The position numbers and the translations under genes are program-made. Below the pieces are notes generated by a model. It did not search any database. It was not told the origin of the DNA and saw nothing but the letters and a program-made list of their open reading frames with translations. Source: Candidatus Brocadia sp. (GTDB taxonomy: Bacteria; Planctomycetota; Brocadiia; Brocadiales; Brocadiaceae). From it: 32,000 nucleotides of DNA. Location of the stretch: the NCBI GenBank assembly GCA_021650915.1, contig CP091279.1, positions 2,250,001 through 2,282,000 of the forward strand. Direction: 5' to 3'. Of the stretch, positions 5,707-19,990 are shown piece by piece; position 1 is the first letter of the stretch; the number at the start of each line of letters is the position of its first letter.

Positions 5707-5767
5707 AAAAAGTGTGCCATGACACACTTATGTAACGTCACACAAGTGTGTCATGGCACACTTTTTT
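5707..5767. terminator. bidirectional intrinsic terminator-like hairpin
   Basis: AAAAAGTGTGCCATGACACACTT (5707-5729) pairs with AAGTGTGTCATGGCACACTTTTT (5744-5766). The 18-bp perfect stem is flanked by an A-run and a T-run. Confidence 0.65.
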
Positions 5768-5932
5768 ACGTATCTTTTCAACAAACCGCTCACCTCCATT
5801 TTTATCATTCAAATTACAACCTCAATTTAAAAAAGAGGTTACATCAAATATAACATTCACAGCATTTATTTATCTCTTTGCGGCATTTTGCTTGCTGTTT
5901 AATCAATAACTCAATTGAATAACCGTGTATAT

Positions 5933-6083
5933 CACGAAAAGGTAAACCCTGAGTGATCAGGGGGCGCAAAGTAAAGGATCTTCAATTGCGTTCTGAGTTT
6001 TGATTTTAGAAACGATTTGAGAAGATGGCCTTACTGCCGAAGATGTGTCGCACACTATCTTTGCAGTAAGGCCTTTGTTTTTT
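5933..6083 (+). promoter_or_regulatory. candidate c-di-GMP-I (GEMM-I) riboswitch aptamer plus intrinsic terminator expression platform
   Basis: 5937-5972 reads AAAAGGUAAACC-CUGA-GUGA-UCAGG-GGGCGCAAAGU. Compare the Vc2/Cd1 core GGCAAACC-helix-GNRA-helix-GGACGCAAAGC. A second long imperfect hairpin follows (AUCUUC 5978-5983 pairs with GAAGAU 6021-6026). The terminator is GGCCTTACTGC (6027-6037) / GCAGTAAGGCC (6063-6073) followed by TTTGTTTTTT. Confidence 0.55.
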
Positions 6084-6306
6084 AAAGGATGTTCGGCGGA
6101 TTGTGCTATACCGCAAAAAATCTTTCTTTTCCCCTTTTTATGGAGACATGTTTACAAGTTTTTCTACACCCCCACCTGACTTCGTCGTGAGCGCACAGTT
6201 GAACGACAGAGGGACATGGCGGTGGTGGTTTTGCTGCGTTATGGTTTTTTTCATAACTTTTCCGTATGCTACTAATTTTTTTCTCGTATTAGGAGTTTCA
6301 AGGTTT

Positions 6307-6375
6307 GAGATTCTTCGTCCGTTTCACTCCCTCAGAATGACACCGTTTGTCATTCTGCGGGAAGCGAAGAATCTC
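6307..6375. repeat. palindromic repeat (GAGATTCTTCG..CAGAATGAC / GTCATTCTG..CGAAGAATCTC)
   Basis: Imperfect inverted arms at 6307-6341 and 6349-6375. This produces the SLRMT..VILREAKNL pseudo-peptide in ORF 6103..6387. Confidence 0.7.
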
Positions 6376-6386
6376 ATTAATGTATA

Positions 6387-6484
6387 GAAATCTTAAAGTT
6401 GCGGTTGTAGGGCGACAAGGCTCGTCGCACTACCTTGAGAAAGTCGCCGAAGGCAGCCTAATTAAATGTATAGGAATTTCAATG
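6387..6484. repeat. repeat family R3, full copy (internal GTAGGGCGACAAGGCTCGTCGCACTAC hairpin plus GCCGAAGGCAGCCTAATTAA)
   Basis: About 85% identical to the reverse complement of 12631-12724. A partial copy is at 3819-3870 and a fragment at 6575-6600. Confidence 0.8.
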
Positions 6485-6490
6485 TTTGTT

Positions 6491-6565
6491 GTAGGGGCGA
6501 AGCATTTGCTGATATCAGATTTGAATGTCATCTTATATCCTGGACAGCAAATGCTTCGCCCCTAC
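6491..6565. repeat. repeat family R2 (GTAGGGGCGAAGCATTTGC - ~37 nt - GCAAATGCTTCGCCCCTAC)
   Basis: 19-bp perfect inverted arms. Other copies are at 14855-14928 and 31239-31309. Confidence 0.85.
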
Positions 6566-6616
6566 GTGTGATCGTAAACAAAGTAGCCGAAGGCCTAATT
6601 TAAGGATGGTTTAATT

Positions 6617-8602
6617 ATGAATACTATTTTATTATGTCTCTTCAGCCCAAAAAAGTATCTATGTCTCATCCTGCCGGTATTGTTATTCTGTCTTTTTGTC
6701 AACGCCTCTGCCCACCAGGAAATATCAAAAGAAAAGAACGCTGGCGGAGGACGATTTGCGCGGGACAGTTTGCCACCCAGGCAGTATTTTGAAGACCTTG
6801 CGATCCGGCGTTATGCGGTCGTAGTCGGCATATCAGATTACAAAGACCCGGGAATAGCCGATCTGAAATATGCGGATGCCGATGCGCAGGCATTTTATGA
6901 TTTTCTTACCAGCCCGGCCGGCGGTGATTTTCAGAAAGACCAGGTATTGCTTCTGAAGAATGAGCAGGCGACCCTGAAAAACGTTACCCTGGCCATCACC
7001 AATTTTCTTAAAAGGGCAAAAGACCCTGATTTTGTCGTCATTTTCATGGCATGTCACGGCGAGCCCGAACCAGACCGCCCCGGCAATCTCTACCTGCTTA
7101 TGCATGATTCCGAGCCCGGCAGCCTGTCTGCAACTGCCTATCACATGGAAAACGTCAATGCCGACATGAAACGATACGTTGCGGCAAAAAGACTGATTTT
7201 CTTTGCCGACGCCTGCCACAGTTCCGGGCTTACCGGGGAAATGACAAGCACCAGGGGAGGAGCAAATACGATTCATGCGGCGCTTTCCACCCTCAGGGCA
7301 ACGAGAGAGGGGTGGGGAATTGTCAGCGCAAGCAGGGCGCGCGAGGTCTCCGTAGAGTCCAGCCAGTTTGGCGGCGGTCACGGAGCATTCACCCATTACC
7401 TGCTCGAAGGATTAAAAGGAAAGGCCGACGCAGAAGGAAACAAAAACGGCATCGTTACCCTTGTGGAGGCATTCGATTTCGTAGAAGAAAACGTAAAGAA
7501 GGCAACGCACAACGCTCAGCACCCCGATATCTCGGGAAATTTTGACAACAACCTTCCCCTGGGATTCCCCGGGACAGGAACCGGCGCCAATGAAAGCGCC
7601 CAAAGCAGCGACACTCCACCCCTGGGAATTCTGAAGATTCACGGCGCACCTGAAGGGGCAACGGTATTTATCAAAGGGAAGGAAGTTGGCGCCGCGCCGC
7701 TGGACATAAAACTCGTAAGCGGGGCATATCCGGTTATGATAAAAACAAGAGGCGGCCGTGATGTGTCAGATACCGTATTTATCAATCCGGATGAAATAAC
7801 CGAAATCTGCGCCGAGCAATTCTTCGAACAGGTCTATTTTGGTGAAGACTCGGGCGCTTCCGGTAAAACGCTCCTGGCGTATTCAACCGCAGGCGGACCA
7901 TCGCAGGAATACCCAGGCTCCGGTAATGAAACGGGCGCGATGCCGTCAAAGAGTGAAAAGCCTGATGTTACAAAGACGGATGCCCCGTTGCCCGGCAGCG
8001 CCCTGGCCGTACCGGCAGAAATGATGCATAAGAAGACAGACGTGCAGAAAACAAAGGAAAATATCGATGCGCTTATTAAAGAATTGGAGATCATGGCCAG
8101 GCAGCAGGCCGGTGAAGAAAAACCCATGCCTGCCAAAAAGCCCGGAGAAAAGAGACCCGAATCCATAGCCGCTCCTCACGCCGTCCCCATATCACTGAAG
8201 GAATTTTGCGTAAAAATGGGTGCATTGCCCAGCAGGCACACCACCGTCATGCTCCGCCACAGGATTATCGACGCACTCCTGGCCCAAAACGGCTTGCTGG
8301 TGGTGGAAAGAGACTTGGAAATGCAGGAAGCAATCTTACGGGAACAGCGGCTCGGCGGCTCTGTCCTTGCCGATGAGATGTACAGAATAGGGCTGGGAAA
8401 GATACAAAGCGCCCAATTCCTTTTGTTCGGAGAAGTGTCTCAGGGAGAAAAGCCGGATCAAATCATGGTAAGAATAGAGATCGTTGACACGGCAACGACG
8501 CTCATCAACACGCTGGAACGCACCTTTCAGCGCGAAGAAAATCTGGGAGCCGTGGCGCACGATATCGCCGCAAAGATACGAGCAAAAATTATGGTTCAGT
8601 GA
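6617..8602 (+). CDS. secreted caspase-like cysteine peptidase (C14) with a PEGA domain, a disordered linker and a C-terminal CsgG/TolB-N-like domain
   Basis: 661-aa ORF with a signal peptide (LLFCLFVNASA|HQ). The C14 core is RYAVVVGISDYKD...FMACHGEP (His)...FFADACHSSG (Cys). The PEGA-like segment is LKIHGAPEGATVFIKGKEVGAAPLDIKLVSGAYPVMI. The C-terminus LLVVERDLEMQEAILREQRLGG...FLLFGEV...VRIEIVDTATT resembles the periplasmic CsgG/FlgO/LpoB-type fold. Confidence 0.85.
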   Translation: MNTILLCLFSPKKYLCLILPVLLFCLFVNASAHQEISKEKNAGGGRFARDSLPPRQYFEDLAIRRYAVVVGISDYKDPGIADLKYADADAQAFYDFLTSPAGGDFQKDQVLLLKNEQATLKNVTLAITNFLKRAKDPDFVVIFMACHGEPEPDRPGNLYLLMHDSEPGSLSATAYHMENVNADMKRYVAAKRLIFFADACHSSGLTGEMTSTRGGANTIHAALSTLRATREGWGIVSASRAREVSVESSQFGGGHGAFTHYLLEGLKGKADAEGNKNGIVTLVEAFDFVEENVKKATHNAQHPDISGNFDNNLPLGFPGTGTGANESAQSSDTPPLGILKIHGAPEGATVFIKGKEVGAAPLDIKLVSGAYPVMIKTRGGRDVSDTVFINPDEITEICAEQFFEQVYFGEDSGASGKTLLAYSTAGGPSQEYPGSGNETGAMPSKSEKPDVTKTDAPLPGSALAVPAEMMHKKTDVQKTKENIDALIKELEIMARQQAGEEKPMPAKKPGEKRPESIAAPHAVPISLKEFCVKMGALPSRHTTVMLRHRIIDALLAQNGLLVVERDLEMQEAILREQRLGGSVLADEMYRIGLGKIQSAQFLLFGEVSQGEKPDQIMVRIEIVDTATTLINTLERTFQREENLGAVAHDIAAKIRAKIMVQ

Positions 8603-8618
8603 AAGTGATCCCATCGTT

Positions 8619-9761
8619 ATGAAGAAAAATACCCGGTACACCATACCGCAGCGAAGCTGCAACCACGTCCCCCTTCATGAAGGGGACGGTCAAAACCCTT
8701 GCAAAAAAGGAAACGGTTTATACGGTACTACAATACTCAGATGCACACTGCTTATTGCAGGATTGGTATTTCCCCTGCTCAGCAGGGGAGCCCTTTCAGA
8801 CACCGCAAAGGATACCACACCACCGGTGGTGCACACGGATGTAACACCTGCGGTGGTGCATGATACCCACCTTTTTCTGAGCGGTGAGGCATGTGACAAC
8901 AACGGCATCGCACGGGTGCTGGTGAACGGATGTCCGCTGGAAATCCACACAGGAAGGCGCGTCTCTTTCAATCATCTCCTGCCCCTCAGAGAGGGAAGAA
9001 ATATCGTTACCGTCCAGGCCATTGATGCCAGCGGAAATGCGTCGGTCGTTTCGCCGGTGAAGATCACGAGAAAGGCCTTCGATCTGCCGGAAACCGTTTC
9101 CCGGTATGCCGTTGCCCTGCTTCCGGTCAAGTCCTCCCCGGCGCTTGATATGCCCGGGGAATCAATCCATTCCCTCTTCCTGAAGGCATTCGGCGAAGAA
9201 CCGCAGAGGTTCCATTTTGTGGAACGGGACCCGGCACGGCTTGAAGGAATCCTCCGTGAGCAACGGATCAGTAAAATCGGGCAGATATCCCCCGAAACGG
9301 TCATAAAGATCGGGAAGATCATTGCCGCAGAGGGGCTATTCCTGGTTACGATAGATGAAGACGTCAACGGCATCGGTATTACCCTGCGTCTGGTGGATAC
9401 GGAGACGGGTCGCATACGGGCGCAGGCAAGCGTGCATGATGCGGATAACGGCATGAAAAATCTCGAATGGCTTATCTATGGTCTGTCATTGAAGATCAAG
9501 CGACAGCTTCCCGCGGCGCAGGGGAACGTTATTCGGATTTCAGAAAACGGTTTTTATGTAAACACCGGCGCTGCTCATGGCATTGAGGTAGGGATGAAAT
9601 TATTGCTATTCCGTGAAATCAGGGAAGGGAATTTCGTCTTAAAAGAACCGCTTGACACGATTGCACGGGTGGAGCGGGTGCTGCCGCACATCTGTTTTGT
9701 TACCGTCAGCAGAGAGGGTATTTCCAGGGTGGAAAAAGGAGACCTTGTCCTTGCAAAGTAG
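8619..9761 (+). CDS. secreted Ig-like + CsgG/TolB-N-like + C-terminal beta-barrel domain protein (paralog of the 10061..12220 C-terminal half)
   Basis: The ORF track opens at 8484, overlapping the upstream gene. I prefer ATG 8619 (MKKNTRY...), though the start remains uncertain. A hydrophobic segment follows (LLIAGLVFPLLS). The Ig-like module is PPVVHTD...NGIARVLVNG...NIVTVQAIDASGN. The CsgG-like module is YAVALLPVKS...FHFVERDPARLEGILREQRI...LRLVDTETGRI. Confidence 0.75.
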   Translation: MKKNTRYTIPQRSCNHVPLHEGDGQNPCKKGNGLYGTTILRCTLLIAGLVFPLLSRGALSDTAKDTTPPVVHTDVTPAVVHDTHLFLSGEACDNNGIARVLVNGCPLEIHTGRRVSFNHLLPLREGRNIVTVQAIDASGNASVVSPVKITRKAFDLPETVSRYAVALLPVKSSPALDMPGESIHSLFLKAFGEEPQRFHFVERDPARLEGILREQRISKIGQISPETVIKIGKIIAAEGLFLVTIDEDVNGIGITLRLVDTETGRIRAQASVHDADNGMKNLEWLIYGLSLKIKRQLPAAQGNVIRISENGFYVNTGAAHGIEVGMKLLLFREIREGNFVLKEPLDTIARVERVLPHICFVTVSREGISRVEKGDLVLAK

Positions 9762-9765
9762 CAAA

Positions 9766-9871
9766 GCAGGGTGGATTAAGGCGCTTGTCTTTCAGCGCCG
9801 AATCCACCAAGATTATTAACCAGGCGGGTTCAGCAGCGTAAGGTGGATACGCTTCGCTTAATCCACCCTGC
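9766..9871. repeat. REPIN-like double hairpin, family R1
   Basis: GCAGGGTGGATTAAGGCGC..GCGCCGAATCCACC ... GGTGGATACGCTTCGCTTAATCCACCCTGC. It starts 5 nt after the stop at 9761. Confidence 0.8.
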
Positions 9872-10060
9872 TCCACGGAAAGAATATAGCCAGGGGTGAC
9901 AGCCCCTGGAAAAAGAAAAAGGATATAGCACCCATCGATGATTCTCTCTGCACTATTCAGATTCATAACGACGCATAGCCGCAACCATGTCCCCCTGCAG
10001 AAACGGGGTGAAGGGGGCGGTAAAAAGACCGGTAAAAAAAGCGGGATATTACGCGGTAAC

Positions 10061-12220
10061 ATGATAGCCATCCTGCCCCTATTTCTCCTGCCCTTTGCCG
10101 GCTGCACCACGACTTCCCGGATCGGCACGGACAACTGGCGGGATTATTTCAAGCCGGGGCATACCAAAGAGGAAATTGCCCGGGACTTTAATCTTTACCG
10201 GGGCAAGTGGTGGAACTACTACGTACGGGGCCGATGGTTTGCCGAGGGTGGTTTCTATGATGAGGCGGCTCAGGATTTCAGGAAGGCAATCAGCCTGCGC
10301 AGTCAGGATCAGCGTTCTGCCAGGAGCTACGGGATGCATTTCTGGGAATACTTTGCCCACCGCGAGCTGGGGGTTATCTATTATCACCAGGGCAAATACG
10401 AAGACGCCAAAAAGGAGCTTGAAATGTCCCGCTCTACGGCCGATTCTGCCAGGGCCAAGTATTACCTGAATAAAAGCAACGAGGCCATGATAAAGATGAC
10501 GAAGATGGATATCAAACCACCGGAGATCAGAATTACGTCACATACCAACGGCCAGGTTGTCAATACCCCGGCAGCGCACATCAGGGGGGTTGCCACCGAC
10601 GATGCCTACGTAAACGGCATGTCTATCCAGGGCAGAAGGCTGTTCATAGAACTTGCCGAACGGAATCTTTCCTTTGACGAAACCGTTTCCCTGCAGCGGG
10701 GAGAGAACGTGATCAGCATCGAGGCAACCGACCTTTCGGACAAAAGCGCCCGCCAGGATATGAAACTCATGCTCGACCTGCGCCCGCCGGTCTTGTATCT
10801 GGACGATATCCGGATCCAGAAGCGGGACGGACGCAATAGTGCAATTGTTACGGGAACCATCACGGACGACCATGGGGTACAACGCCTTTCAATAAATGAC
10901 ACCGAGATACCCATCACCCCAGGTAAGGAAGTGAAATTTCAGCATGAAATTGTCCTGACCGATGGCCATACCTTCTCCCTGAGGGCAGTCGACGTGGCCG
11001 GAAACGAAACACGGGGCGAAGAATCGTTAGACGTTAAGGCATCGCTCTGGCGCGGCGGCATATGGGATGGACATACCAGGCACATGCACCGGACAAAGGG
11101 TGCACCGGTCATGGTTGCGGCAGGCAAACTGGACAGGGCCGGCGTCAGGAGACTGCTGGCTGCTGGCGGGACAACCACCCAACCTTCCCCCGCAGGCGCT
11201 TCTCACGGGGGCACGGAAAATCCGGGAAAGGGATCAGGAGTGGCTTCTGGTTCGCACGAAACGGCAAGGGACACCATCCCGCCGGTGATCTATACGGATT
11301 TAAAATCTGCAATCGTCCATGATACAAACATCTTCTTCGGCATCCATGCGCACGACGATAACGGCATTGCAAGGCTCTTTGTCAATCAGCAGCCTTTGGA
11401 TATCCGGACTGCGAAGCACGTCTTCTTCAATCACCTGTTAACGCTCAACGAAGGAGAGAACACCGTCGTGGTAAAGGCCGTTGACAGGGAGGGAAACGAA
11501 ACGGAGCTTGCGCCGGTAAAGATTACCAAAAAGGCCTTTTATCTGCTGGAGACGGAGGCCCGGTATACCGTCGCCCTGCTTCCGTTCAGGACGTTTGAAG
11601 AAGACCAGGCGCTTACGGAAACCCTCTACTCCCTGTTGCTCAGGGCATTTGATGAAGAGCCGAAGCGGTTTAACTTTGTGGAACGCGACCTGACAAAACT
11701 GGAGGAGATCCTGCGCGAGCAAAAAATTGCCAACACGGAGCTCACCTCGCCCGACGCGGCCATAAAGGTCGGGAAGATCCGTGCGGCCGATGGCATGCTC
11801 TTTGGCGCGGTGGAGGAGGATTCCCGGGGCATCAGCGTCACCCTGCGGCTGGTCGATACGGAGACCACCCAGGTGCTGGTAAACGTCGATGTCTATGATG
11901 AAGACAAGAACGCGCAGAACCTCGCATGGCTGATGCACGGCCTGTCGCTCAAGGTGAAACGGCAATATCCCCTGGTGCAGGGCGGCGTCATCCGGATCGC
12001 AGGCAATGGATTCCACGTCGATGCCGGCGCAACGAGCGGGATGCTGGTCGGCATGAAACTGCTCATGTTCCGGGAGGTACCGGTGGGAAATCTTGCATTA
12101 AAGGAGCCCCTGTACAGTGTTGCCCGAATCGTGCAGGTGCAGCCAGACACCTCGTTTGCCCGGATAAGCACAAAGGGCATCAAGACGATAAAGAAGAAAG
12201 ACCTGGTTATAACGAAATGA
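10061..12220 (+). CDS. lipoprotein with TPR region, multiple Ig-like domains, a CsgG/TolB-N-like domain and a C-terminal beta-barrel domain
   Basis: The ORF track opens at 9938. I prefer ATG 10061, which gives a lipoprotein signal MIAILPLFLLPFAGC. The TPR-like segment is GGFYDEAAQDFRKAISL...YHQGKYEDAKKELE. There are repeated Ig-like modules (PPEIRITSH..., PPVLYLDD..., PPVIYTD...). The C-terminal ~330 aa is roughly half-identical (by eye) to 8619..9761 (FNFVERDLTKLEEILREQKI...LRLVDTETTQV). Confidence 0.8.
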   Translation: MIAILPLFLLPFAGCTTTSRIGTDNWRDYFKPGHTKEEIARDFNLYRGKWWNYYVRGRWFAEGGFYDEAAQDFRKAISLRSQDQRSARSYGMHFWEYFAHRELGVIYYHQGKYEDAKKELEMSRSTADSARAKYYLNKSNEAMIKMTKMDIKPPEIRITSHTNGQVVNTPAAHIRGVATDDAYVNGMSIQGRRLFIELAERNLSFDETVSLQRGENVISIEATDLSDKSARQDMKLMLDLRPPVLYLDDIRIQKRDGRNSAIVTGTITDDHGVQRLSINDTEIPITPGKEVKFQHEIVLTDGHTFSLRAVDVAGNETRGEESLDVKASLWRGGIWDGHTRHMHRTKGAPVMVAAGKLDRAGVRRLLAAGGTTTQPSPAGASHGGTENPGKGSGVASGSHETARDTIPPVIYTDLKSAIVHDTNIFFGIHAHDDNGIARLFVNQQPLDIRTAKHVFFNHLLTLNEGENTVVVKAVDREGNETELAPVKITKKAFYLLETEARYTVALLPFRTFEEDQALTETLYSLLLRAFDEEPKRFNFVERDLTKLEEILREQKIANTELTSPDAAIKVGKIRAADGMLFGAVEEDSRGISVTLRLVDTETTQVLVNVDVYDEDKNAQNLAWLMHGLSLKVKRQYPLVQGGVIRIAGNGFHVDAGATSGMLVGMKLLMFREVPVGNLALKEPLYSVARIVQVQPDTSFARISTKGIKTIKKKDLVITK

Positions 12221-12353
12221 AAGAGTTCTGGGATCCCGGATCGTGGATTTTGGATTGCGGATTTCGGATGGTTCGGCTTCGCTCTCCACGAGTTTTTGGT
12301 TTGCGGGTTGCGGGTTTGGGAGTTGAAAGTTTGGGATTTTGGATTTATGGCTG

Positions 12354-12440
12354 GTTCAGGCTTGCAGCCTGAACCGAAACGGTTTGGTTCAATCGTTCGG
12401 CTGAGCGCTCGCGGCGGGTTTGGGTTTGCAACCCAAACCC
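12354..12440. repeat. repeat family R4 (GGTTCAGGCTTGCAGCCTGAACCGAAACGG...) followed by the palindrome GGGTTTGGGTTTGCAACCCAAACCC
   Basis: Hairpin at 12354-12376. Related copies are at 12731-12761 and 20227-20322. Confidence 0.7.
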
Positions 12441-12500
12441 ATGATTTGATGGGGTATATTTATGCCAGAAATTGAATCGTATTCGTGCCAATCCGGCAGT

Positions 12501-12534
12501 GTAAGGCGGATACGCTTCGTTTAATCCACCCGGC
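12501..12534. repeat. half copy of family R1 (GTAAGGCGGATACGCTTCGTTTAATCCACCCGGC)
   Basis: Matches the right-hand unit of 9766-9871. Confidence 0.65.
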
Positions 12535-12630
12535 TCCACTTTTCAGATACAGGGGAAATGCCGGTTAAAAACAACCCTTGCCCCATTTCTTAAGGGGGAT
12601 TCAGGGGGCTGTCTGGTATGCTACGATACA

Positions 12631-12724
12631 AACTTTGAAATTCTTAACATTAATTAGGCCTTCGGCGATTTTCTCAATGTAAAGCGACGAGCCTCGTCGC
12701 TCTACAACTGCAACTTTGAAATTC
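12631..12724. repeat. repeat family R3, full copy, inverted relative to 6387-6484
   Basis: AACTTTGAAATTC occurs as a direct repeat at both ends (12631-12643 and 12712-12724). The internal hairpin is GCGACGAGCCTCGTCGC. Confidence 0.8.
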
Positions 12725-12730
12725 AATATA

Positions 12731-12761
12731 GGGTTCAGGCTTGTAGCCTGAACCGAGACGG
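12731..12761. repeat. repeat family R4 hairpin (GGGTTCAGGCTTGTAGCCTGAACCGAGACGG)
   Basis: Same hairpin as 12354-12376. Confidence 0.7.
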
Positions 12762-12859
12762 TAAAATACAAAAATAACCCGAAACTTGTGGTGAGCGAAG
12801 TCCCTCTCTGCCGTGCAGGCACAGGCAGGAGAACCACTCAAAACTCGAACGGTGAACCT

Positions 12860-14209
12860 ATGAAAACAAAACAAATCCTTTTTCTTATCATCCTATTTCT
12901 GCCCATCGCAGCGCCCTTCACAAAATCCTCTTTTGCTCAACAAGTACCTACCTCCATAAATGCGGTGCCTCTTCCTGTTGGCTCTGGCGCCAGGGCATTG
13001 GGCATGGGCGGCGCCTTTATTGCCGTCGCCGACGATGCCACTGCGGCATCGTGGAATCCCGGCGGCCTGACACAATTGGAAAGACCAGAACTCTCTGTGG
13101 TAGGTTCCTTCTTATCCACACACATGGATTTTGATCCTGGCAATACAGGTTTCTTCTCCCTTGGCAACGAGGATGTATCGCGGGGTGATCTGAATTATGC
13201 CAGTGTTGCATATCCATTCAAGGTGTTAGGAAAAAATCTGGTTGCTGCATTGAATTATCAACAGAAATACGATTTTCATATGAATGTTGATTTTGATTTG
13301 ACAGATGATAGTTTGGGAATTAATGAAGATATAAATATTGATTTTAAATCAAAAGGTGGAATAGGTGCCCTGACGCCTGCCATCGCCATGCAGGTGATGC
13401 CCAAACTATCCATAGGGGTAGCGGTAAATATCTTTACTGACGAATTTTTCGACGATTTTGCCTGGAAAGAAACATTGAAAATGTCAGGATTTGGTACCGA
13501 CGGAGTGGATACAATTAATGACACTGCAAAATCAGTTAGGGAATTCAAAAATTTTCAGGCAGTAAACGTAACGGCAGGCATGCTGTGGGATGTATGGGAA
13601 GAGGAGGAGAAGTGCCTTACCTTTGGCGCCGTGTATCATTCCCCATATACGGCAGATGTTGACCGTATTATAGATTCTCAAAGTACCAGCAATTTTTCAG
13701 GTTCAATTTCTACTTTTTCAAATCATATTAGGGAACATTTCGAGATAGACTATCCTATGTCTATTGGTGCTGGGTGGGGCTTCCGTTACAGCGATGCATT
13801 ATCCCTTTCTATGGATGTGACGTGGACGGATTGGTCTGAATATGAACAGGAGAATAAAGAAACCGGGGAAGAAACCCGTCCCCTGGGACTTGGTGTATCA
13901 ACTGACAGGGACATTGATGATACCTACGCTGTAAGGTTTGGCACAGAGTACCTGATTTTCCGGCAAAAGATGATTATCCCCGTACGGGGTGGACTTTTTT
14001 ACGAACCCCGTCCATCCCTGGATGACCCTACAGACGTATATGGCGTTAGTGTGGGGAGCGGCATTACCTTCAAGAGGTTCAGTATTGACGGTGCATATCA
14101 GTTCCGGTGGGCGAATGATGTGGACGGAGAAGATTTTGGTGAACTTCAAGGAACTCACTTTGATCTCCAGGAGCACCTGTTCCTGGCCTCCGTCATTGTC
14201 TATTTCTAA
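12860..14209 (+). CDS. outer-membrane beta-barrel protein, FadL/OmpP1/PorV-like
   Basis: I prefer ATG 12860 (MKTKQILFLIILFLPIAAPFTKSSFA|QQ signal peptide). The N-terminal plug-like motif GSGARALGMGGAFIAVADDATAASWNPGGL is typical of the FadL/PorV-type family. Amphipathic strands alternate throughout, and the C-terminus is aromatic (...ASVIVYF). Confidence 0.75.
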   Translation: MKTKQILFLIILFLPIAAPFTKSSFAQQVPTSINAVPLPVGSGARALGMGGAFIAVADDATAASWNPGGLTQLERPELSVVGSFLSTHMDFDPGNTGFFSLGNEDVSRGDLNYASVAYPFKVLGKNLVAALNYQQKYDFHMNVDFDLTDDSLGINEDINIDFKSKGGIGALTPAIAMQVMPKLSIGVAVNIFTDEFFDDFAWKETLKMSGFGTDGVDTINDTAKSVREFKNFQAVNVTAGMLWDVWEEEEKCLTFGAVYHSPYTADVDRIIDSQSTSNFSGSISTFSNHIREHFEIDYPMSIGAGWGFRYSDALSLSMDVTWTDWSEYEQENKETGEETRPLGLGVSTDRDIDDTYAVRFGTEYLIFRQKMIIPVRGGLFYEPRPSLDDPTDVYGVSVGSGITFKRFSIDGAYQFRWANDVDGEDFGELQGTHFDLQEHLFLASVIVYF

Positions 14210-14210
14210 G

Positions 14211-14272
14211 TTCCCCTCTAACAAGGGGTGTGTCATAGCTCCCCTCTATTAAGAGGGGTAACGGTGTGTGTC
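14211..14272. repeat. repeat family R5: tandem CCCCTCT-loop-AG(A)GGGG hairpins with GGTGTGTG flank
   Basis: CCCCTCTAACAAGGGG (14213-14228) and CCCCTCTATTAAGAGGGG (14241-14258). Related copies are at 15041-15085, 15268-15290 + 15543-15572, and 17844-17948. Confidence 0.75.
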
Positions 14273-14351
14273 TCGCAACTAAAAAAGGCATGGAGGGTGT
14301 ACTCCACCTTTATTCATACATACAAGGTTGAAAAGGAGGGAAAAAGTGAGT

Positions 14352-14750
14352 ATGAAAAATAGAAACGTGCGCTTTTATGGGCTGATGGCAGGATTCATTT
14401 TGTTCTTCAGCATATTAACCTGCGGGTGTATAACAATTACTATTTATGATAGTGATTGTTGTCAGTGTCCTCATGTAACCGGTGAAGGAATTCCAGGAGT
14501 TTATCCTATGGGAAGGATTTGGGGATATATCAAGAATAACTCGGGACAACCAATTGCTAACGCACAAATTACTATTACTCCTGGTACAGGAGTAAGTACT
14601 TCAAATTCGGCAGGAAAATATGTAACTTCTTTTGTAGATTACGGTTTGTATACATTAACAGTCACAGCTAATGGTTATCAACCTGGAGGGGGTCAAGTAA
14701 ACGTTAATGCTTTGTCAGTTCGGAAGGACTATACGCTAAATCCACAATAA
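14352..14750 (+). CDS. small membrane-anchored or lipoprotein-like protein with a CarboxypepD_reg-like beta-sandwich domain
   Basis: RBS AAGGAGG at 14333-14339. Candidate starts are GTG 14346 or ATG 14352; the track's TTG 14328 lies upstream of the RBS. Signal/anchor is FILFFSILTCGCITI. The domain reads GYIKNNSGQPIANAQITITPG...AGKYVTSFVDYGLYTLTVTANGYQP. Confidence 0.7.
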   Translation: MKNRNVRFYGLMAGFILFFSILTCGCITITIYDSDCCQCPHVTGEGIPGVYPMGRIWGYIKNNSGQPIANAQITITPGTGVSTSNSAGKYVTSFVDYGLYTLTVTANGYQPGGGQVNVNALSVRKDYTLNPQ

Positions 14751-14797
14751 CAGTAATCTTTAATCTCCACGTGGGTTCTGGGGGCTGGAGTTTAAAG

Positions 14798-14955
14798 TTT
14801 TGTAACACTTTAGTTTTTTGAAAAATTACAATAATAACGATGTTGCCGCACGGTGTAGGGGCGAAGCATTTGCCATACATTGGCATAAAGGTATTCACAC
14901 CCCAAGCAGGCAAATGCTTCGCCCCTACCTTTTCAAAAAACTAAAGTGTTACAAA
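14798..14955. repeat. 158-bp nested palindromic element: 27-bp outer inverted arms (1 mismatch) enclosing a family R2 unit
   Basis: Outer arms are TTTGTAACACTTTAGTTTTTTGAAAAA (14798-14824) and CTTTTCAAAAAACTAAAGTGTTACAAA (14929-14955). Inner arms are GTAGGGGCGAAGCATTTGCC / GGCAAATGCTTCGCCCCTAC (14855-14928). Confidence 0.85.
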
Positions 14956-15040
14956 GTTTTGTGTTTTGAGTTGTGGGTTGAGGTTAGATGTTGGAAATTG
15001 GAGGTTGGAGTTGAGAGTTACGAATTGTGTGTTCGGGAGT

Positions 15041-15085
15041 GTGTTATAGCTCCCCTCTATTAAGAGGGGGAAGGGGGTGTGTCTT
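15041..15085. repeat. repeat family R5 hairpin (CCCCTCTATTAAGAGGGG plus GGGGGTGTGT flank)
   Basis: Near-identical to 14236-14272. This explains the shared ..CVIAPLY ends of two spurious track ORFs. Confidence 0.75.
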
Positions 15086-15290
15086 ACAGAAGCCCGAAGG
15101 GCTGAAGGCATATAGAATATAGGGTTCAGGTTGCCTGTCTGTGTGCGGCCACGCACAGGCAAGCAAACCCGCAGCAGCGATGCATTTTGTGTTGAGCGCA
15201 TGTAGGGCAGGCATTGCCTGCCTTATGTCAATCTCAATTTTCGGTAGACGGTGCCTACACTGGCTAAACACACCCCCGGCCCCTCTTAGA

Positions 15291-15542
15291 AGCTTACTGT
15301 TGGACAAAATTTCGGCTGGACAAAATGACCCTAATTGGGCGATTATCATTTAAAACAGCTAATTTTACTGGTTTTTTCGCTATTGTTTTTCGAAATTTTA
15401 GTTTAATAGACTCAACACTTTGGTAAAAAACAAGTGCTTCGCAATAGAAAATTCAATGGATTAAATGTCGTAAGTCAAAGGACAATAAGATATTTACGGT
15501 TCCTTTAACTTGTCCGGCAAAAAAATTGTCCAACAGTAAGCT
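15291..15542. mobile_element. 252-bp MITE-like element with 17-bp perfect terminal inverted repeats (AGCTTACTGTTGGACAA), inserted into the loop of an R5 hairpin
   Basis: Left end 15291-15307; right end TTGTCCAACAGTAAGCT at 15526-15542. Subterminal GGACAAAAT/TTGTCC repeats are present. The interior is AT-rich and non-coding. The flanks ACACACCCCCGGCCCCTCTTAGA and TAATAGAGGGGAATAAAGGGGTGTGT are the two halves of an R5 unit. Confidence 0.75.
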
Positions 15543-15713
15543 TAATAGAGGGGAATAAAGGGGTGTGTACATCTGGCATAGCACACCCATAACCTCTCAG
15601 GTAGGTCAACCGTCCTCGGTTGACATCATAATGACAAGCGGGGACGTCTGAAGCGCTCAGCCAAACGGTTGCAAGCCTGAACCCGCGTAAAGAAAGAGAA
15701 AGGAGGAGACCAT

Positions 15714-16700
15714 ATGAAATATGTAATCCGGCGGCAATCATTCAAGGCACATGTTACGATGTGTCTGTTCATAACGTTAATTTCTACCTTGCCATTAATA
15801 GGTTCTGCATGTACTAAAGGAGCAAGTGAACCGCTAGCACCATCACCGGACAGCCCCGTGCCCAAAGAAACGCCCAGGGAAGGTGCTGTTGAACCAACGC
15901 AATCACAGGATACAACAAGTGTTGCGAGGCCAGCGCCATCAAAGCAACCAAAGGATTCAATCGATATGTCCTCTGAGGTTAAAAGCATTGGGGGCATTAC
16001 ATGGCAGGGAGATTCTCTCTGGGTGTTGGATGATGAGAGGAAAATAATCGATCGATTTGATACTACTTTAGAGGAACTTTCCCCTGACCATAAATATTCA
16101 ATTGATCTTACACAGTCAAGCGCTTTTAGTTTGAAAAAATTCAAAGGTCTGGCCTATGACAAAGAAGCCGAAGCACTCTGGGTTGCCGCTGAAGAGACAG
16201 ATATAGATCCGAAGAAAATGGTTCCGATGCTGATTAAGATTAATCTTGTCAACAGACAGACGGAACTTATAAAGATGGAGATTCCCGCAAAGAAAGGGTT
16301 TAAGTCCATTGAGGGCATTGCATGGGACAAGAAAAGAGAAAGCCTCTGGGTTGCCATTTACGCAGGATTTTCGAGCTCATTAAATCAGATCAATCCTAAA
16401 ACCAGACAAATCACAAAAAGTATCTTCTCTGATAGTTATCCCAAAGGTATTGCAACGGATGGAGAGCATCTTTGGAGTATTTGTTACAACGGAGAGGAAT
16501 TCCCTTCCGCAATAGATCAGAGAATAATACAGCCTGAAGAGCATAAAATGTTACGTTCGCGTGAATTTATTAAAGACATACCGGAAGCAGAACCCATTAG
16601 CCTTGTTTTTGATGGTAATGATCTCTGGTATGCAGATAAAAAAACAAAGCGTGTTATAAGGTTTATACAGCCCAATAAGAAACCTCTTCAATTGAAATAA
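15714..16700 (+). CDS. lipoprotein with a 5-bladed beta-propeller (glutamine cyclotransferase/NHL-like repeats)
   Basis: Strong RBS AAGGAGGAG before ATG 15714. Signal LPLIGSAC, then a Pro/Ser-rich linker. Five repeats end in an LW motif: DSLWVLD, EALWVAA, ESLWVAI, EHLWSIC, NDLWYAD. Confidence 0.75.
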   Translation: MKYVIRRQSFKAHVTMCLFITLISTLPLIGSACTKGASEPLAPSPDSPVPKETPREGAVEPTQSQDTTSVARPAPSKQPKDSIDMSSEVKSIGGITWQGDSLWVLDDERKIIDRFDTTLEELSPDHKYSIDLTQSSAFSLKKFKGLAYDKEAEALWVAAEETDIDPKKMVPMLIKINLVNRQTELIKMEIPAKKGFKSIEGIAWDKKRESLWVAIYAGFSSSLNQINPKTRQITKSIFSDSYPKGIATDGEHLWSICYNGEEFPSAIDQRIIQPEEHKMLRSREFIKDIPEAEPISLVFDGNDLWYADKKTKRVIRFIQPNKKPLQLK

Positions 16701-16729
16701 TTGCAAGCACCAAATAAGGAGAAAATATC

Positions 16730-17761
16730 ATGCAAAGATTTTTAAAGAGATTTTCCTATATCTTTATGATATGCCTTGTCCTTTCCGGAGGCTGTATCAC
16801 AGTTGAATACAGACGTGGACCTATTCCAGAACATCTGTCAATGGGGGAACATGCTCATAGTTGTTATTGTGGTTGTTGTGATATATCTGGACCTCGACCA
16901 CCACCTGTCCTATCACCCGCATCCGAATATAAACATGCCGTGTTAATCTGTGCAGGGGTAACGAATGCAGACCGACAAAGGTATAATTCAGCATATTGGT
17001 ATGATCTTATGAGTCAATATCTGATGCTGAGAGAGCGTGGGTTTAATGATGAGAATATTCATGTACTTTATGGTTATGATGGAGAAGATTACTATCCCGG
17101 ACTTTTAGATTATAACTCTGCACATTTGTTTGGTAAGAAAATTACTGATATGGCTATTTCTAAAGCGAATATTGAATCAGTATTCCAGGCATTAGGTGGT
17201 AAAAGAAGTGATGTAAATTGTGTAAGTCGTGCCCTAACTGATGAGGATTATTTGTATATCTGGTGGATGGGCCACGGCGGTTCTGATCCAGGTACTTGCA
17301 ATCTTTACTTGCCCATTAGTGTTACGGGTGAAGAATTTACTGACGTAGAATTGAGTAACTGTATTAATCAGGTTTCTCATTATAAAAAAAGAGTTGTCGC
17401 CGTAATGACCTGTTTCTCGAGTGGTATTCTCGATGATATGATAAACGAAAAAGGTGTTAATACAGTTACCCTTGCTTCATCATCCTGTGACGAATATTCA
17501 TATGATATCTGGCCGACCTGTGATCGCCGTCCTCATGCAGAATTTAATTATAAACTCACAGAGGCCATACGTCAGATGGATATATGCAATAAGCCACTTA
17601 AAAAAGATCCAGATACTAATCCAAAAGATGGTTATGTATCACTGGCGGAGGCATGTGATTATATTGCGCCGCCAATGAGAAACCCAACGGCCCCTCGCAA
17701 AATTAGTGACCCTGATAAGATAAGTGATTCGACTTATTTTAACGAGCCAAATACGCCTTAA
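16730..17761 (+). CDS. clan CD cysteine peptidase, legumain (C13)-like, lipoprotein-type signal
   Basis: 343-aa ORF with signal MICLVLSGGC. Candidate catalytic His is in YIWWMGHGGSD and Cys in VVAVMTCFSSG, in the His-then-Cys order and spacing typical of the caspase/legumain fold. HAVLICAGV matches the N-terminal beta-strand. Confidence 0.65.
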   Translation: MQRFLKRFSYIFMICLVLSGGCITVEYRRGPIPEHLSMGEHAHSCYCGCCDISGPRPPPVLSPASEYKHAVLICAGVTNADRQRYNSAYWYDLMSQYLMLRERGFNDENIHVLYGYDGEDYYPGLLDYNSAHLFGKKITDMAISKANIESVFQALGGKRSDVNCVSRALTDEDYLYIWWMGHGGSDPGTCNLYLPISVTGEEFTDVELSNCINQVSHYKKRVVAVMTCFSSGILDDMINEKGVNTVTLASSSCDEYSYDIWPTCDRRPHAEFNYKLTEAIRQMDICNKPLKKDPDTNPKDGYVSLAEACDYIAPPMRNPTAPRKISDPDKISDSTYFNEPNTP

Positions 17762-17843
17762 AGTTCACACGAGGGGGATGGAATAGAGTAGTTTTTAACA
17801 CAGCCCTTGATCTCTGCCAGCAAGGACGCACAAGAAACAGCTA

Positions 17844-17948
17844 ACACACCCCCGGCCCCTCTTTTTAGAGGGGAGGATAAAGAACACACCTCCGGCTCCT
17901 CTGCCTGTGCGTGTTCACACGCAGACAGGTCTTGATAGAGGGGAGATC
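17844..17948. repeat. composite of R5 hairpins, one carrying an inserted CCTGTGCGTG..CACGCAGACAGG hairpin
   Basis: CCCCTCTTTTTAGAGGGG (17857-17874), then CTCCTCT-[GCCTGTGCGTGTTCACACGCAGACAGGTCTTGAT]-AGAGGGGAG. Confidence 0.65.
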
Positions 17949-17993
17949 ATGGCGTTTCCCGTGTAATCTCATAAAACTCTTTTACGGGAGGGA

Positions 17994-18386
17994 ATGGATA
18001 TGAAGAGCAGATATGTGTTTTTTGTGGGGGGAGGTGTAGTCTTATGTTTGTTACTGAGTATGACAGTTGCGATTTCAAAGGCATACGCAATACCAGGAAC
18101 AGTTTCAGGAACAGTCAGGGATGACTTTGAGAAGGATGGATATGAAACAAGCGATCCTCCCTTATCACCGAACCCAGCCCTTAGGCCAAGTATGCGTCTT
18201 CTTATTGGTTCTAATGTCATTGCTGGCCCAGTTAATAGAACCCCTGAGGGGATGTATACGTTTGCAGCATTGCCAGGTAACTATACGGTAGAGGCCTCGT
18301 GTTCTGGTTTTGTGACACAGACTCAACCAGTAACAATAATTTCCGGCGGCGGTACAACAAAGAACTTTGGACTGCAACGTCCGTAG
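17994..18386 (+). CDS. small secreted protein with a CarboxypepD_reg-like beta-sandwich domain
   Basis: Signal peptide ...MTVAISKAYA|IPG. The second ATG at 18000 has better RBS spacing after GGGAGGG. The domain reads GTVSGTVRDD...EGMYTFAALPGNYTVEASCSGFVTQTQPVTI. Confidence 0.7.
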   Translation: MDMKSRYVFFVGGGVVLCLLLSMTVAISKAYAIPGTVSGTVRDDFEKDGYETSDPPLSPNPALRPSMRLLIGSNVIAGPVNRTPEGMYTFAALPGNYTVEASCSGFVTQTQPVTIISGGGTTKNFGLQRP

Positions 18387-18471
18387 TACCCGTTCGTTTT
18401 AGGCTACGGGTTTATTCACACAAATTTTTAAGCAGCATGATTCACCCACGAATAGGGGAAGGAGGAAAACC

Positions 18472-19572
18472 ATGAAACAATACTCTGAAAATGAACTAGA
18501 TGTTTTGTTGGACATCCTTGAAAGGTATGATAAGGAATTACAGGTTGAAGGTGTCTATTATATGGATGTTGGATACAGATTTAAAGATGGACAGCGGGAC
18601 GATCAACTAGTGTGCAGACATATTAATTACAAATTATATATTGTGGACAATTTTAGCTATATCGCGCCGTAAAACAGCATTTATATGTTTCGTTATTAAT
18701 ATGTCTCTACACTAGCAATACGTGTTCATACGAAGGCAAAACCGAGGAGTACCGTGGACGTGTCGAAACAGATCCCTGAAATAATAGAAGGACATCCTAC
18801 TTGCGTGATCAAATATAATTCTCAGACACCCCCAGTGGAAGTCCCTGCAGATGTGCGAATACGTGATATTCAAAATAATTGGCAAAGACGTAATCAGCGT
18901 TTTGAGACTTTAGTAGGGGGCATTGCAGTCTGGAATTCTCAATTCAAGCACGAGTGTCAAATCCCCGGTACGCTTGGAGCAATAGTCTTTCATGCTGCCA
19001 CCTCGCAATTTATGGGCTTATCAAACTATCATGTCCTCGTTCTCAATAAACAGGGAAAGGCAGAAGGGAAAAAAGGAGATACTATTATGCAGGGGAACTT
19101 TAATGAGTACCCCCCTAATCGGAATAATAGCATTGGCACTCTTTTCAAATGGAATAAGAAACTCGACTGCGCCATTTGTGCTTTAAGAGATTATTCGGAG
19201 GTGGGAGAGATTTTAGACTGTTCTAAGAGACCACAAGGGGCAATATCACCTCTGGTGGGGATGAAAGTCATCAAATCCGGCATGGCAACGGGACTTACCC
19301 GCGGGATTGTTGATGGTGTTAGCCGTACGGATAAATCATTTACCGTGATTCCTGATCCTGGTAATCCAAGTCCTACCGGTGAAATTAGCACTGGTGGGAA
19401 TTCTGGTTCTGTGTGGCTGGAATTTGAAAGTTTTTGTGCCGTAGGACTTCATTATGATGGAGAAAAGAACTCAGACCCAGGAGCTGAAAGAGCGTGGGCG
19501 AAGCAGATGACTGAGGTGGCGAAAGAGTTAGAGATTGAATTTACAACAGGGATCACAGAGATACGTGTATGA
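18472..19572 (+). pseudogene. chymotrypsin-fold (S1) serine protease interrupted by a 105-bp MITE insertion
   Basis: ORF 18472..18672 and ORF 18754..19572 share a frame. Deleting 105 bp (element plus one copy of the duplicated CTAG) joins ...YRFKDGQRDDQL to AIRVHTKAKPRSTVDVSKQIPEII... without a stop. Catalytic candidates are His in LSNYHVLV, Asp in LDCAICAL and Ser in GGNSGSVW. A GTG restart at 18754 could still yield a truncated product. Confidence 0.75.
18607..18715. mobile_element. 109-bp MITE-like element, copy 1 (21-bp terminal inverted repeats CTAGTGTGCAGACATATTAAT / ATTAATATGTCTCTACACTAG)
   Basis: The reverse complement matches 22352-22460 at 103 of 109 positions. It is flanked by, or ends in, CTAG. 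It supplies the premature TAA (18670-18672) that truncates the protease ORF. Confidence 0.85.
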
Positions 19573-19905
19573 AGAACAAACGTGTCCTGAGCGTGCCTCA
19601 TGCGGGTTCTGGTTTGTCTGCCTGTGCCTGCACGGCAGACAGAAGGCGGCTCTTACCATAAAAGTCGTTGCCAACCAGCCCTGACAGGGTTGATTCACGA
19701 CAGCCCCCTATTTTCCCCCCATTTCTCCGAGTACTCCGTGTCCTCTGTGTGAGTTGCTACAAATAAGTATATCATTACCCGATGATGGGAACACATCTTG
19801 ACTTTACCTTCTGTTTCTGATACTTTTGCTTCTGGCAATGGTTTTCATTTTTAGTCTTGCAACAAGTATGATAACAGCTATAGTGAAAGACAAAAATAAG
19901 TCCTC

Positions 19906-19990
19906 ATGCGATGAGCGGAGCGACGAAGCAATCGCTGTAATAGATTGCTTTGCTGTCGTTCGCAATGACAATGCATGTATACTTATTTAA
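19906..19990. repeat. repeat family R6 (..GAAGCAATCGCTGTAATAGATTGCTTTGCTGTCGTTCGCAATGACA..ACTTATTTAA)
   Basis: A related copy is at 23722-23835 (GCCGTCGTTCGCAATAACA...ACTTATTTAA). Confidence 0.6.

Follow-up and report, generated by a model that had tools for sequence, protein, structure and literature searches.

We analysed a 32,000-nucleotide stretch of the genome of the anaerobic ammonium-oxidizing (anammox) bacterium Candidatus Brocadia sp. (GenBank assembly GCA_021650915.1, contig CP091279.1, positions 2,250,001 to 2,282,000 of the forward strand; hereafter the window), in which a predicted cyclic di-GMP (c-di-GMP) riboswitch precedes a run of co-directional genes for envelope proteins. 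Between positions 6617 and 19572, ten plus-strand open reading frames (ORFs) make up nine consecutive genes (g1 to g9), as the initial annotation had described, and every credible gene there lies on that strand. The cluster is probably a signal-controlled cell-envelope protease machine. The specific account that we favour, and to which we give a little less than an even chance, is that this anammox-specific cluster performs second-messenger-gated proteolysis at the interface between the periplasm and the outer membrane, through an anchored protease complex that remodels the cell surface.

A conserved core in two configurations

About 30 Brocadiales loci, gathered by homologue look-ups and by a scan of one genome per species and annotated with tblastn, were compared with the window. 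The core order is that of a caspase-like C14 peptidase with a PEGA domain (g1), an outer-membrane lipoprotein (g3) and a FadL-family barrel (g4). Brocadia, Jettenia, Kuenenia, Anammoxibacter and groundwater Brocadiales all have it, and the genome scan added about 25 Brocadiales genomes to the loci found by look-up; g3 always follows the C14 gene, and the FadL gene follows g3 in all genera. Because this core is kept while the flanking genes differ in every locus, it argues for a functional unit. Gene order is thus conserved for a core of three or four genes, but not for the nine genes as one unit. The view that unrelated envelope genes came to lie side by side by chance, and do not act together, could draw on the long repeat-filled spacers between the genes of the window and on the accessory genes, which vary among genomes. 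For the core, however, this explanation is contradicted by an order that persists in at least four genera, in unrelated contexts and with overlapping or abutting frames in many loci, and we consider it very unlikely.

The other genes are distributed more narrowly. A small CarboxypepD_reg lipoprotein gene (g5) follows the FadL gene in Brocadia and Jettenia. The genes for a beta-propeller protein and a C13 peptidase (g6 and g7) are always adjacent and tightly spaced, and their occurrence is limited to Jettenia caeni and part of Brocadia; two loci (L016 and L030) have the pair inverted, and L011, Kuenenia and Anammoxibacter lack it. Both g5 and the g6–g7 pair are lineage-specific add-ons. Genes g8 and g9 lie beside the cluster only in the window and in Jettenia ecosi, and are loosely associated.

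Two configurations of the core alternate among the loci. The cyclase type, which occurs in Kuenenia, Anammoxibacter, groundwater lineages and part of Brocadia, has a gene for a CHASE2 class-III nucleotide cyclase directly upstream on the same strand; this sensor cyclase, present upstream of the core in most anammox lineages, is the most informative feature of the comparison and had been missed by the initial annotation. The spacings between the cyclase and C14 genes and between the C14 gene and g3 are −62 to +62 nt in most loci, with several of 100–270 nt and two of 871 and 1,237 nt, and the tight spacings suggest one operon. The protease of this type has an extra beta-rich domain of approximately 90 residues after its signal peptide. 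In the riboswitch type, which includes the window, there is no cyclase, the N-terminal domain of the protease is deleted, the signal peptide is retained and a partial paralogue of g3 is present (g2, which is confined to the riboswitch-type Brocadia loci). The N-terminal domain occurs in all of the loci, at least 15, that have an adjacent CHASE2 cyclase, and every locus without the domain also lacks the cyclase. Retention of the signal peptide in the domain-less forms means that the domain was lost by internal deletion, separately from the cyclase gene. An attempt to count independent losses of the cyclase and the domain on a neighbour-joining tree was set aside: the domain-less proteins were monophyletic in 4–9 of 100 bootstraps, internal branches were short and the tree conflicted with the clearly homologous riboswitch leaders.

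A model of the N-terminal domain from cyclase-type orthologues (predicted local distance difference test (pLDDT) score of 86) had a single notable match in the PDB, 5ix9 (E = 0.019, template-modelling scores of 0.68 and 0.78, root-mean-square deviation of 1.1 Å over 66 columns); a sequence profile of the domain found nothing significant in the PDB. The matched structure shows the N-terminal domain of MpIBP, an ice-binding adhesin of Marinomonas, and was used as the template for the retention module of LapA, a module that plugs an outer-membrane pore (bioRxiv 10.1101/198937). We treat this modelled likeness to a retention module as a lead only, and the domain itself is absent from g1 of the window. 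Assignment of the domain to FecR was tried and rejected as unproven: Pfam gave only a weak DUF7354 match (E = 0.005) and hhalign against the FecR-like domain of a TatC fusion protein encoded in the window returned a probability of 0.2%.

The adjacency of the cyclase could also mean that the cluster is a trans-envelope sensor, in which a hydrophobic or peptide signal enters through the FadL-type barrel, is processed by the periplasmic protease and scaffold or relayed by them to the CHASE2 domain, and leads the cyclase to make a cyclic nucleotide; in the riboswitch-type Brocadia clade the receptor would then have been lost and the remainder placed under c-di-GMP control. The cyclase is immediately upstream in most lineages and co-varies with the extra periplasmic domain of the protease. 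CHASE2 sensors elsewhere are encoded together with periplasmic partners, such as the LysM–FecR proteins paired with CHASE2 kinases in a Burkholderia biofilm operon (PMC5192318), and fused C14–CHASE2 proteins have been reported in cyanobacteria (PMC3501461). Gene pairs of C14/CHAT and CHASE2 also occur in other phyla. The N-terminal domain is not detectably FecR, however, and we know of no signal or ligand for any CHASE2 domain. Moreover, the cluster is intact and its catalytic residues are conserved where the cyclase is absent, and this persistence implies a function that is independent of the receptor. We regard the sensor as unlikely.

Outside anammox bacteria, we observed secreted caspase genes beside CHASE2 cyclases in two loci (L040, 8330–13428, and L046, 9524–13579). 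The gene order in Ignavibacteria is WD40-Ig-C14, DUF4384 and CHASE2 cyclase, and in Acidobacteriota it is C14/CHAT, CHASE2 cyclase and DUF928. Within the order, giant predicted surface proteins of up to 2,739 residues, which combine beta-helix/NosD or PQQ-propeller regions with CarboxypepD_reg domains, flank the cluster in an Anammoxibacter (L009, 14935–16186) and a Brocadia (L012, 1–7824).

A riboswitch and terminator precede the protease gene

The riboswitch aptamer, at 5931–6041 on the plus strand, matches the c-di-GMP-I (GEMM-I) model (Rfam RF01051) with 53.5 bits, compared with a gathering cutoff (GA) of 35, which confirms the candidate that had been placed upstream of the cluster; ten related loci score 37.5–63 bits. 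A riboswitch at or above the gathering cutoff lies directly before the C14 gene in nine of nine cyclase-less, riboswitch-type Brocadia loci (the window, L010, L011, L013–L016, L029 and L030). The earlier suggestion of a second-messenger-controlled surface-remodelling module thus holds for its predicted c-di-GMP link, but not for its extension to all nine genes. The cyclase-type loci that were scanned had no riboswitch ahead of the C14 gene, and none reached the gathering score in the Jettenia, Kuenenia and Anammoxibacter loci (for Jettenia caeni, none at E values of up to 0.1). Two cyclase-type Brocadia loci have a homologous riboswitch with the same terminator after the FadL gene (L012, 16572–16685; L023, 16149–16262), where it precedes a gene for a secreted choice-of-anchor L surface protein (L023, 16452–17996; 264.7 bits).

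Alignment and folding of the leaders identified an expression platform at 6029–6096 (plus strand): a U-tract follows an intrinsic terminator hairpin, GGCCUUACUGC...GCAGUAAGGCC, whose 5′ arm is the aptamer 3′ strand GGCCUUACUGCC. The hairpin has a folding energy of −31 kcal/mol (z = −4.2; none of 200 shuffled sequences was as stable) and is kept, together with the T-run, in all ten aligned leaders, with a compensatory change from a G–C to an A–U pair in L012. The first aptamer hairpin reads CCCUGA/UCAGGG in most leaders and CCAUGA/UCAUGG, also compensatory, in L013, whereas L015 has only the C-to-A half of this change; the compensatory events behind the helix covariation are few. In the minimum-free-energy fold of the full leader, the terminator forms in place of the aptamer P2 stem. 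As the terminator competes with the aptamer, ligand binding should prevent termination, and we infer an ON switch from the leader sequence. Without ligand, the terminator would form upstream of g1; with c-di-GMP bound, the aptamer would sequester the 5′ arm of the terminator and transcription would continue into g1.

The ATG lies approximately 15–20 nt past the T-run in L010 and L011 and 520 nt past it in the window. Comparison with these two leaders shows that an interspersed-repeat block of about 510 nt (6097–6608), bounded by duplicated TTTAA(A)GGATG, separates the terminator from the start of g1. Its repeat families are common to all large spacers of the region (6097–6608, 9770–10060, 12230–12860, 14760–15710, 17770–17990 and 19600–20330). 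In one example, GTAGGGGCGAAGCATTTGC, perfect 21-nt hairpin arms occur at 6491–6565 and again at 14855–14928. These repeats look like elements of the miniature inverted-repeat transposable element (MITE) or repetitive extragenic palindromic (REP) type that loosened a formerly compact operon. The intergenic hairpins could instead have acted as terminators that give independent transcripts. A consensus terminator scan returned 25 sites, compared with 17.2 ± 4.4 expected, and among these no plus-strand spacer site combined a strong stem with a T-run; the long perfect hairpins at 6491–6565 and 14855–14928 have no T-tracts. In the g3–FadL spacer of the related Brocadia locus L010, we also observed an Acido-Lenti-1 RNA on the minus strand (15869–15914; 44.9 bits, GA 37).

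Two clan CD peptidases and a split gene for a putative serine peptidase

The first gene of the cluster, g1 (6617–8602, plus strand), encodes a secreted protein that matches Pfam Peptidase_C14 (PF00656) with 63.9 bits (GA 21.4), and its catalytic dyad, His147 (ACHGE) and Cys200 (DACHS), is invariant in 16 homologues. By profile and dyad it is a member of peptidase family C14, with predicted activity, in agreement with the caspase-like label that it had been given. The signal peptide is followed by the C14 domain, a PEGA domain, a conserved helical linker and a C-terminal domain that resembles FlgT-N and LpoB, which gives a weak, partial CsgG match below the gathering cutoff (17.9 compared with 20.8 bits). 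The window protein lacks the N-terminal beta-domain of the cyclase-linked orthologues, and a 100% identical copy is found in Ca. Brocadia. In the look-ups and the scan, the full-length family is restricted to Brocadiales.

Caspase homologues invite comparison with cell-death or anti-phage modules. The caspase domain of g1 is closest to the NCBIfam family caspase_w_EACC1 (97.6 bits, cutoff 140) and also matches the ‘caspase’ model of PADLOC, but signal peptides at the N terminus and domains of periplasmic type mark g1 and its orthologues, neither EACC1 nor an NTPase nor any other defence partner accompanies them, no other protein of the cluster matches PADLOC, and conservation is vertical across one order rather than patchy. 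PADLOC returned just generic caspase and cyclase domain matches, and we rejected the defence reading as extremely improbable.

The second peptidase, g7 (16730–17761, plus strand), is a legumain-like lipoprotein, as the initial annotation had it: it matches Pfam Peptidase_C13 (PF01650) with 37.7 bits (GA 22.8) and plant legumains in the PDB (E = 3.5 × 10^−6), and both the His182/Cys228 dyad and the lipobox G21–C22 are invariant in six orthologues. The family is very narrow, with six clusters that are all Brocadia or Jettenia-like; identical copies occur in Ca. Brocadia assembly GCA_000987375.1 and in Brocadia sp. UTAMX2.

The last gene, g9 (18472–19572, plus strand), had been described as a disrupted S1 protease. 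The disruption is real: the two parts, 18472–18672 and 18754–19572, share one frame and are interrupted by a 109-bp element at 18607–18715 that has 34-nt terminal inverted repeats with 82% complementarity. Brocadia assembly GCA_000987375.1 (L001) has its copy divided likewise, into 66 and about 270 residues, and Jettenia ecosi (L028) has an intact orthologue of 318 amino acids with the motifs SNHHV, LDCAV and GGDSGS. The S1 label is carried by these His, Asp and Ser motifs, the last of which reads GGNSGS in the window copy, and by a match of the intact orthologue to Trypsin_2 that is below threshold and spans the whole profile (E = 0.074; 14.2 compared with 27.6 bits). The window copy also matches Pfam Nal1_C weakly (E = 0.0023). 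PDB sequence searches with g1, g3, g6 and g9 gave nothing useful.

A FlgT-like module in g2 and g3 and, in part, in g1

The outer-membrane lipoprotein g3 (10061–12220, plus strand) has the lipobox LPFAGC (an SC lipobox in the orthologue consensus), followed by TPRs, three Ig-like Glucodextran_B domains and a two-domain module that yields partial CsgG and LpoB matches in Pfam. Its family is restricted to Brocadiales. The Pfam CsgG match covers only profile positions 34–100 of 210. We modelled the C-terminal module with AlphaFold from an alignment of 25 sequences (pLDDT 85, predicted template-modelling score 0.77) and compared it with the PDB using Foldseek. The best matches were to FlgT of the Vibrio flagellar H-ring (8z5n, E = 8 × 10^−14; 3w1e, E = 2 × 10^−13), in alignments of 307–320 columns that span both subdomains, a TolB-N-like alpha/beta domain and a beta-domain. 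TolB-N, GNA1162, PelC and PelBC, LpoB and CsgG followed at E values of 10^−6 to 10^−3.

Transmembrane hairpins build the 36-strand pore of the CsgG curli secretion channel, and the g3 model contains none. Together with the partial CsgG match and the precedence of FlgT, this indicates that the module has a periplasmic scaffold fold and not that of the CsgG channel, so that the earlier term ‘CsgG-like’ is correct at the superfamily level only. On the basis of the model, the module is an outer-membrane-associated periplasmic scaffold fold whose relatives often form rings; the likeness is one of fold, as opposed to a functional FlgT, and there is no flagellar context at the cluster.

The paralogue g2 (8619–9761, plus strand) carries the whole module, 51% identical to that of g3, behind an Ig-like domain, with a partial Pfam CsgG match of 24.1 bits. 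Its start codon is uncertain, and its leader resembles a signal-peptidase-I type after a long N-region. It has no lipobox, so that only g3 of the ‘two CsgG-like lipoproteins’ is a lipoprotein by this signature. The module is represented in g1 by its first, alpha/beta half only.

The fold also bears on a PelBC-like export gate, in which a TPR scaffold, a PelC/FlgT-like ring and the barrel would pass a matrix polymer or protein, with the protease as an accessory maturation factor. Besides FlgT, the g3 module matches PelC and the PelBC complex (E = 10^−5), g3 has TPRs as PelB does, the barrel gene comes after g3, and Pel production is under c-di-GMP control. Structurally, however, PelC matches the module far less well than FlgT does. 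The PelB porin also differs from FadL barrels, whose 14 strands enclose a plugged channel for hydrophobic compounds, and no glycosyltransferase, polymerase or inner-membrane export component is encoded in any of the loci. An export gate seems to us quite improbable.

The barrel and the accessory envelope proteins

The outer-membrane beta-barrel g4 (12860–14209, plus strand) has a leader and a C-terminal Phe and matches Pfam Toluene_X/FadL (PF03349) over residues 50–421 with 67.2 bits (GA 29.7); its PDB match is 3dwo, a FadL homologue of Pseudomonas aeruginosa (E = 2.9 × 10^−4). It had been called FadL/PorV-like, and the FadL half of that name stands. Neither PorV model of NCBIfam reached its cutoff (PorV_fam, 51.9 of 90 bits and only about 45 N-terminal residues; T9SS_OM_PorV, 20.1 of 250 bits), and the BamG match was also below threshold.

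The small proteins g5 (14352–14750) and g8 (17994–18386), both on the plus strand, are paralogues that match Pfam CarboxypepD_reg (PF13620) with 47.1 and 34.3 bits, above the gathering cutoff of 32.3, as had been proposed. The lipoprotein g5 is a single CarboxypepD_reg beta-sandwich domain, and its CGC lipobox is kept in six of seven orthologues; g8 is secreted, and its orthologue in Jettenia ecosi is a lipoprotein encoded directly after FadL. The CarboxypepD_reg domains of both proteins weakly match the C-terminal part of the NCBIfam model of the anammox S-layer glycoprotein Kustd1514 (28 and 16.5 bits, cutoff 1,400). Between them lies g6 (15714–16700, plus strand), a secreted propeller protein of the SdiA-regulated/YjiK type (Pfam, 26.5 bits; GA 21), the Jettenia orthologue of which has weak matches to the SGL and Glu_cyclase_2 propellers. 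It is a lipoprotein in the window, so the description as a propeller lipoprotein applies to this copy; the lipobox Cys is present in three of seven orthologues, and several have a signal-peptidase-I-type leader.

It had been claimed that all nine proteins carry secretion leaders. Judged by pattern, the lipobox is confined to g3, g5, g6 and g7, and the leaders of g1, g4 and g8 are, by eye, of the signal-peptidase-I type, whereas neither g9 nor its intact Jettenia ecosi orthologue has a recognizable signal peptide, which makes the claim too broad. An unusual ‘GCIT’ junction, said to be shared by two of the leaders, is a lipobox Cys followed by beta-branched residues; it is semi-conserved, approximately as GC[ITF]T[IVF], in most orthologues, with exceptions such as g5 of L005.

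A FadL-superfamily barrel beside clan CD peptidases and beta-sandwich proteins recalls the PorU/PorV pair of the type IX secretion system (T9SS), an analogy that the initial annotation had drawn. A T9SS-like sorting route would have the barrel present cargo while one of the clan CD peptidases, C14 or C13, cuts a sorting signal and fixes the cargo to the surface, with the CarboxypepD_reg proteins as cargo or adaptors. Consistent with such a route are the sub-threshold matches of g4 to PorV/PorQ and BamG models, the intact dyads of the two clan CD peptidases, the large CarboxypepD_reg surface proteins that adjoin the cluster in some genomes and the weak resemblance of the g5/g8 domain to part of the S-layer protein model; the C13 family also includes transpeptidase-type enzymes. 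Yet the PorV models are unmet by the barrel, the peptidases belong to families C14 and C13 and not to the C25 type of PorU, and the C13 gene, which lies outside the core, is absent from most genera that retain it. No core or other T9SS component occurs in the window or in the approximately 30 loci, and we identified no shared C-terminal sorting domain in the neighbouring proteins. On the window and these loci the analogy is not supported, and we think a sorting system of this kind improbable.

A model for gated proteolysis at the outer membrane

In the account that we favour, g1, g3 and g4, joined in the riboswitch type by the g3 paralogue g2, would form a protease complex anchored at the outer membrane. 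The FlgT-N/LpoB-like domain common to g1, g2 and g3 may be the surface through which g1 docks onto g2 and g3, and related folds, such as those of FlgT, PelC and CsgG, build rings beneath the outer membrane. In riboswitch-type Brocadia, production of the complex would respond to c-di-GMP through the leader; in most of the other anammox lineages a CHASE2 cyclase gene stands before g1, g3 and g4, which would tie the module to nucleotide second messengers either way. Most likely, the complex would remodel proteins of the surface or matrix when cells change from free-living to aggregated life or back. Weak hints in this direction are the likeness of g5 and g8 to the S-layer model, the giant CarboxypepD_reg proteins that flank some clusters and the sister riboswitch before a surface-protein gene. 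A more detailed version, in which a periplasmic caspase is tethered through FlgT-like scaffolds to the FadL-type barrel, is coupled either to the CHASE2 cyclase through a retention-module-like domain or to a c-di-GMP ON riboswitch, and cuts S-layer or adhesin proteins to decide between planktonic and granular growth, is speculative, and we doubt that it is correct in full.

Several observations weigh against the favoured account. The scaffold fold is also compatible with non-proteolytic roles. The alternation of riboswitch and cyclase has gaps: four groundwater loci have the N-terminal domain and no cyclase within 3–5 kb upstream, and Jettenia has neither cyclase nor riboswitch. The aptamer fits the c-di-GMP-I-GGC variant model (RF03167) equally well, with 54 bits in the window and 54–63 bits across loci, the window score being below the gathering cutoff of 59, and c-di-GMP is the predicted ligand. 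Repeats have been inserted in all large spacers of the window (520 nt from the terminator to g1, 640 nt from g3 to g4 and 960 nt from g5 to g6), so that riboswitch read-through into the downstream genes is a presumption. Leaders and lipoboxes were called by eye and from conservation, without a signal-peptide predictor, and the relatives are all metagenome-assembled genomes.

Comparison with known systems

The Lap system of Pseudomonas and relatives (LapD, LapG and LapA) is similar in having a periplasmic cysteine protease at the outer membrane that is tied to c-di-GMP and to the surface display of an adhesin. The N-terminal domain of the cyclase-type orthologues, which g1 of the window lacks, adds the match to the MpIBP/LapA-type retention domain. 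However, LapG belongs to family C93 (BTLCP) and the cluster protease to the caspase-like C14, Lap is controlled by protease sequestration and the cluster by riboswitch transcription or a CHASE2 cyclase, and neither the window nor the loci encode a LapG-family protease, a LapD-type receptor, a type I secretion system or an RTX adhesin, so that the two systems resemble each other in function alone.

Protease and adhesin genes under c-di-GMP riboswitches are known, for example those for Zmp1/PPEP-1 of Clostridioides difficile and its substrates. There, as in Brocadia, a class I c-di-GMP riboswitch with a terminator-type platform precedes genes for a secreted protease and surface proteins, and the homologous Brocadia riboswitch likewise precedes a choice-of-anchor L surface protein. 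The phylum (Planctomycetota here) and the protease families differ, and the Brocadia unit adds an outer-membrane scaffold and barrel.

Cyclase-type anammox loci, with a CHASE2 cyclase beside a secreted C14 protein, resemble the pairs of CHASE2 proteins with periplasmic caspase/CHAT, DUF4384, DUF928 or FecR partners, for none of which, to our knowledge, is a mechanism known. The anammox version differs in its PEGA and FlgT-like domains, g3 lipoprotein and FadL barrel, and the window version has lost the CHASE2 partner. FlgT, PelC, LpoB, TolB-N and CsgG are periplasmic, outer-membrane-associated proteins, several of which form rings. With this superfamily the g3 module, whole in g2 and in part in g1, shares an alpha/beta fold and beta-domain, but its fusion partners here are TPR and Ig domains or a caspase, and no flagellar, Pel or curli genes are nearby.

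Neighbouring genes

Upstream of the cluster are genes for FtsY, a NusB–PHP-domain fusion (1833–3116, minus strand), RibH and a TatC protein fused to a C-terminal FecR/DUF7354-like domain (4243–5589, plus strand; TatC 222 bits, FecR 28.8 bits). The TatC–FecR gene lies directly upstream of the riboswitch, an adjacency that is not kept in relatives. Just after it, at 5707–5766, a near-perfect 30-nt palindrome between A and T runs resembles a bidirectional terminator and gives spurious matches to microRNA families. Downstream are a group II intron-type reverse transcriptase/maturase ORF (21040–22206, plus strand; RVT_1 and GIIM), for which Rfam reported no intron RNA domains at gathering score, and genes for RlmN, RseC, a Ser/Thr kinase and squalene-hopene cyclase.

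Implications for anammox bacteria

We found no paper on the cluster, on caspases or CHASE2 proteins of anammox bacteria or on c-di-GMP riboswitches in these organisms, and nothing on the cluster in work on the Kuenenia FadL; nor did we find a description of any genetic target in them that responds directly to c-di-GMP. The protein families are known, and for second-messenger control of envelope proteolysis the Lap system and the riboswitch-controlled clostridial proteases are precedents; what appears to be undescribed is the way in which these elements are combined, the confinement of that combination to anammox bacteria and the exchange of riboswitch and cyclase.

Anammox bacteria grow slowly and are not in pure culture, their use in wastewater nitrogen removal needs granules, and c-di-GMP has been linked to their aggregation. 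The cluster offers a concrete regulon in Brocadia, under a predicted c-di-GMP riboswitch, that encodes envelope proteases and scaffolds. The riboswitch and the CHASE2 cyclase alternate in step with one protease domain, and this natural experiment could show the roles of CHASE2 receptors and of periplasmic bacterial caspases; bacterial caspase homologues that act in the envelope, rather than in cell death, are poorly understood. If the model is true, the tethered-caspase machine would be an unrecognized type of envelope machine and would give a first mechanistic handle on the widespread CHASE2–caspase/CHAT pairs.

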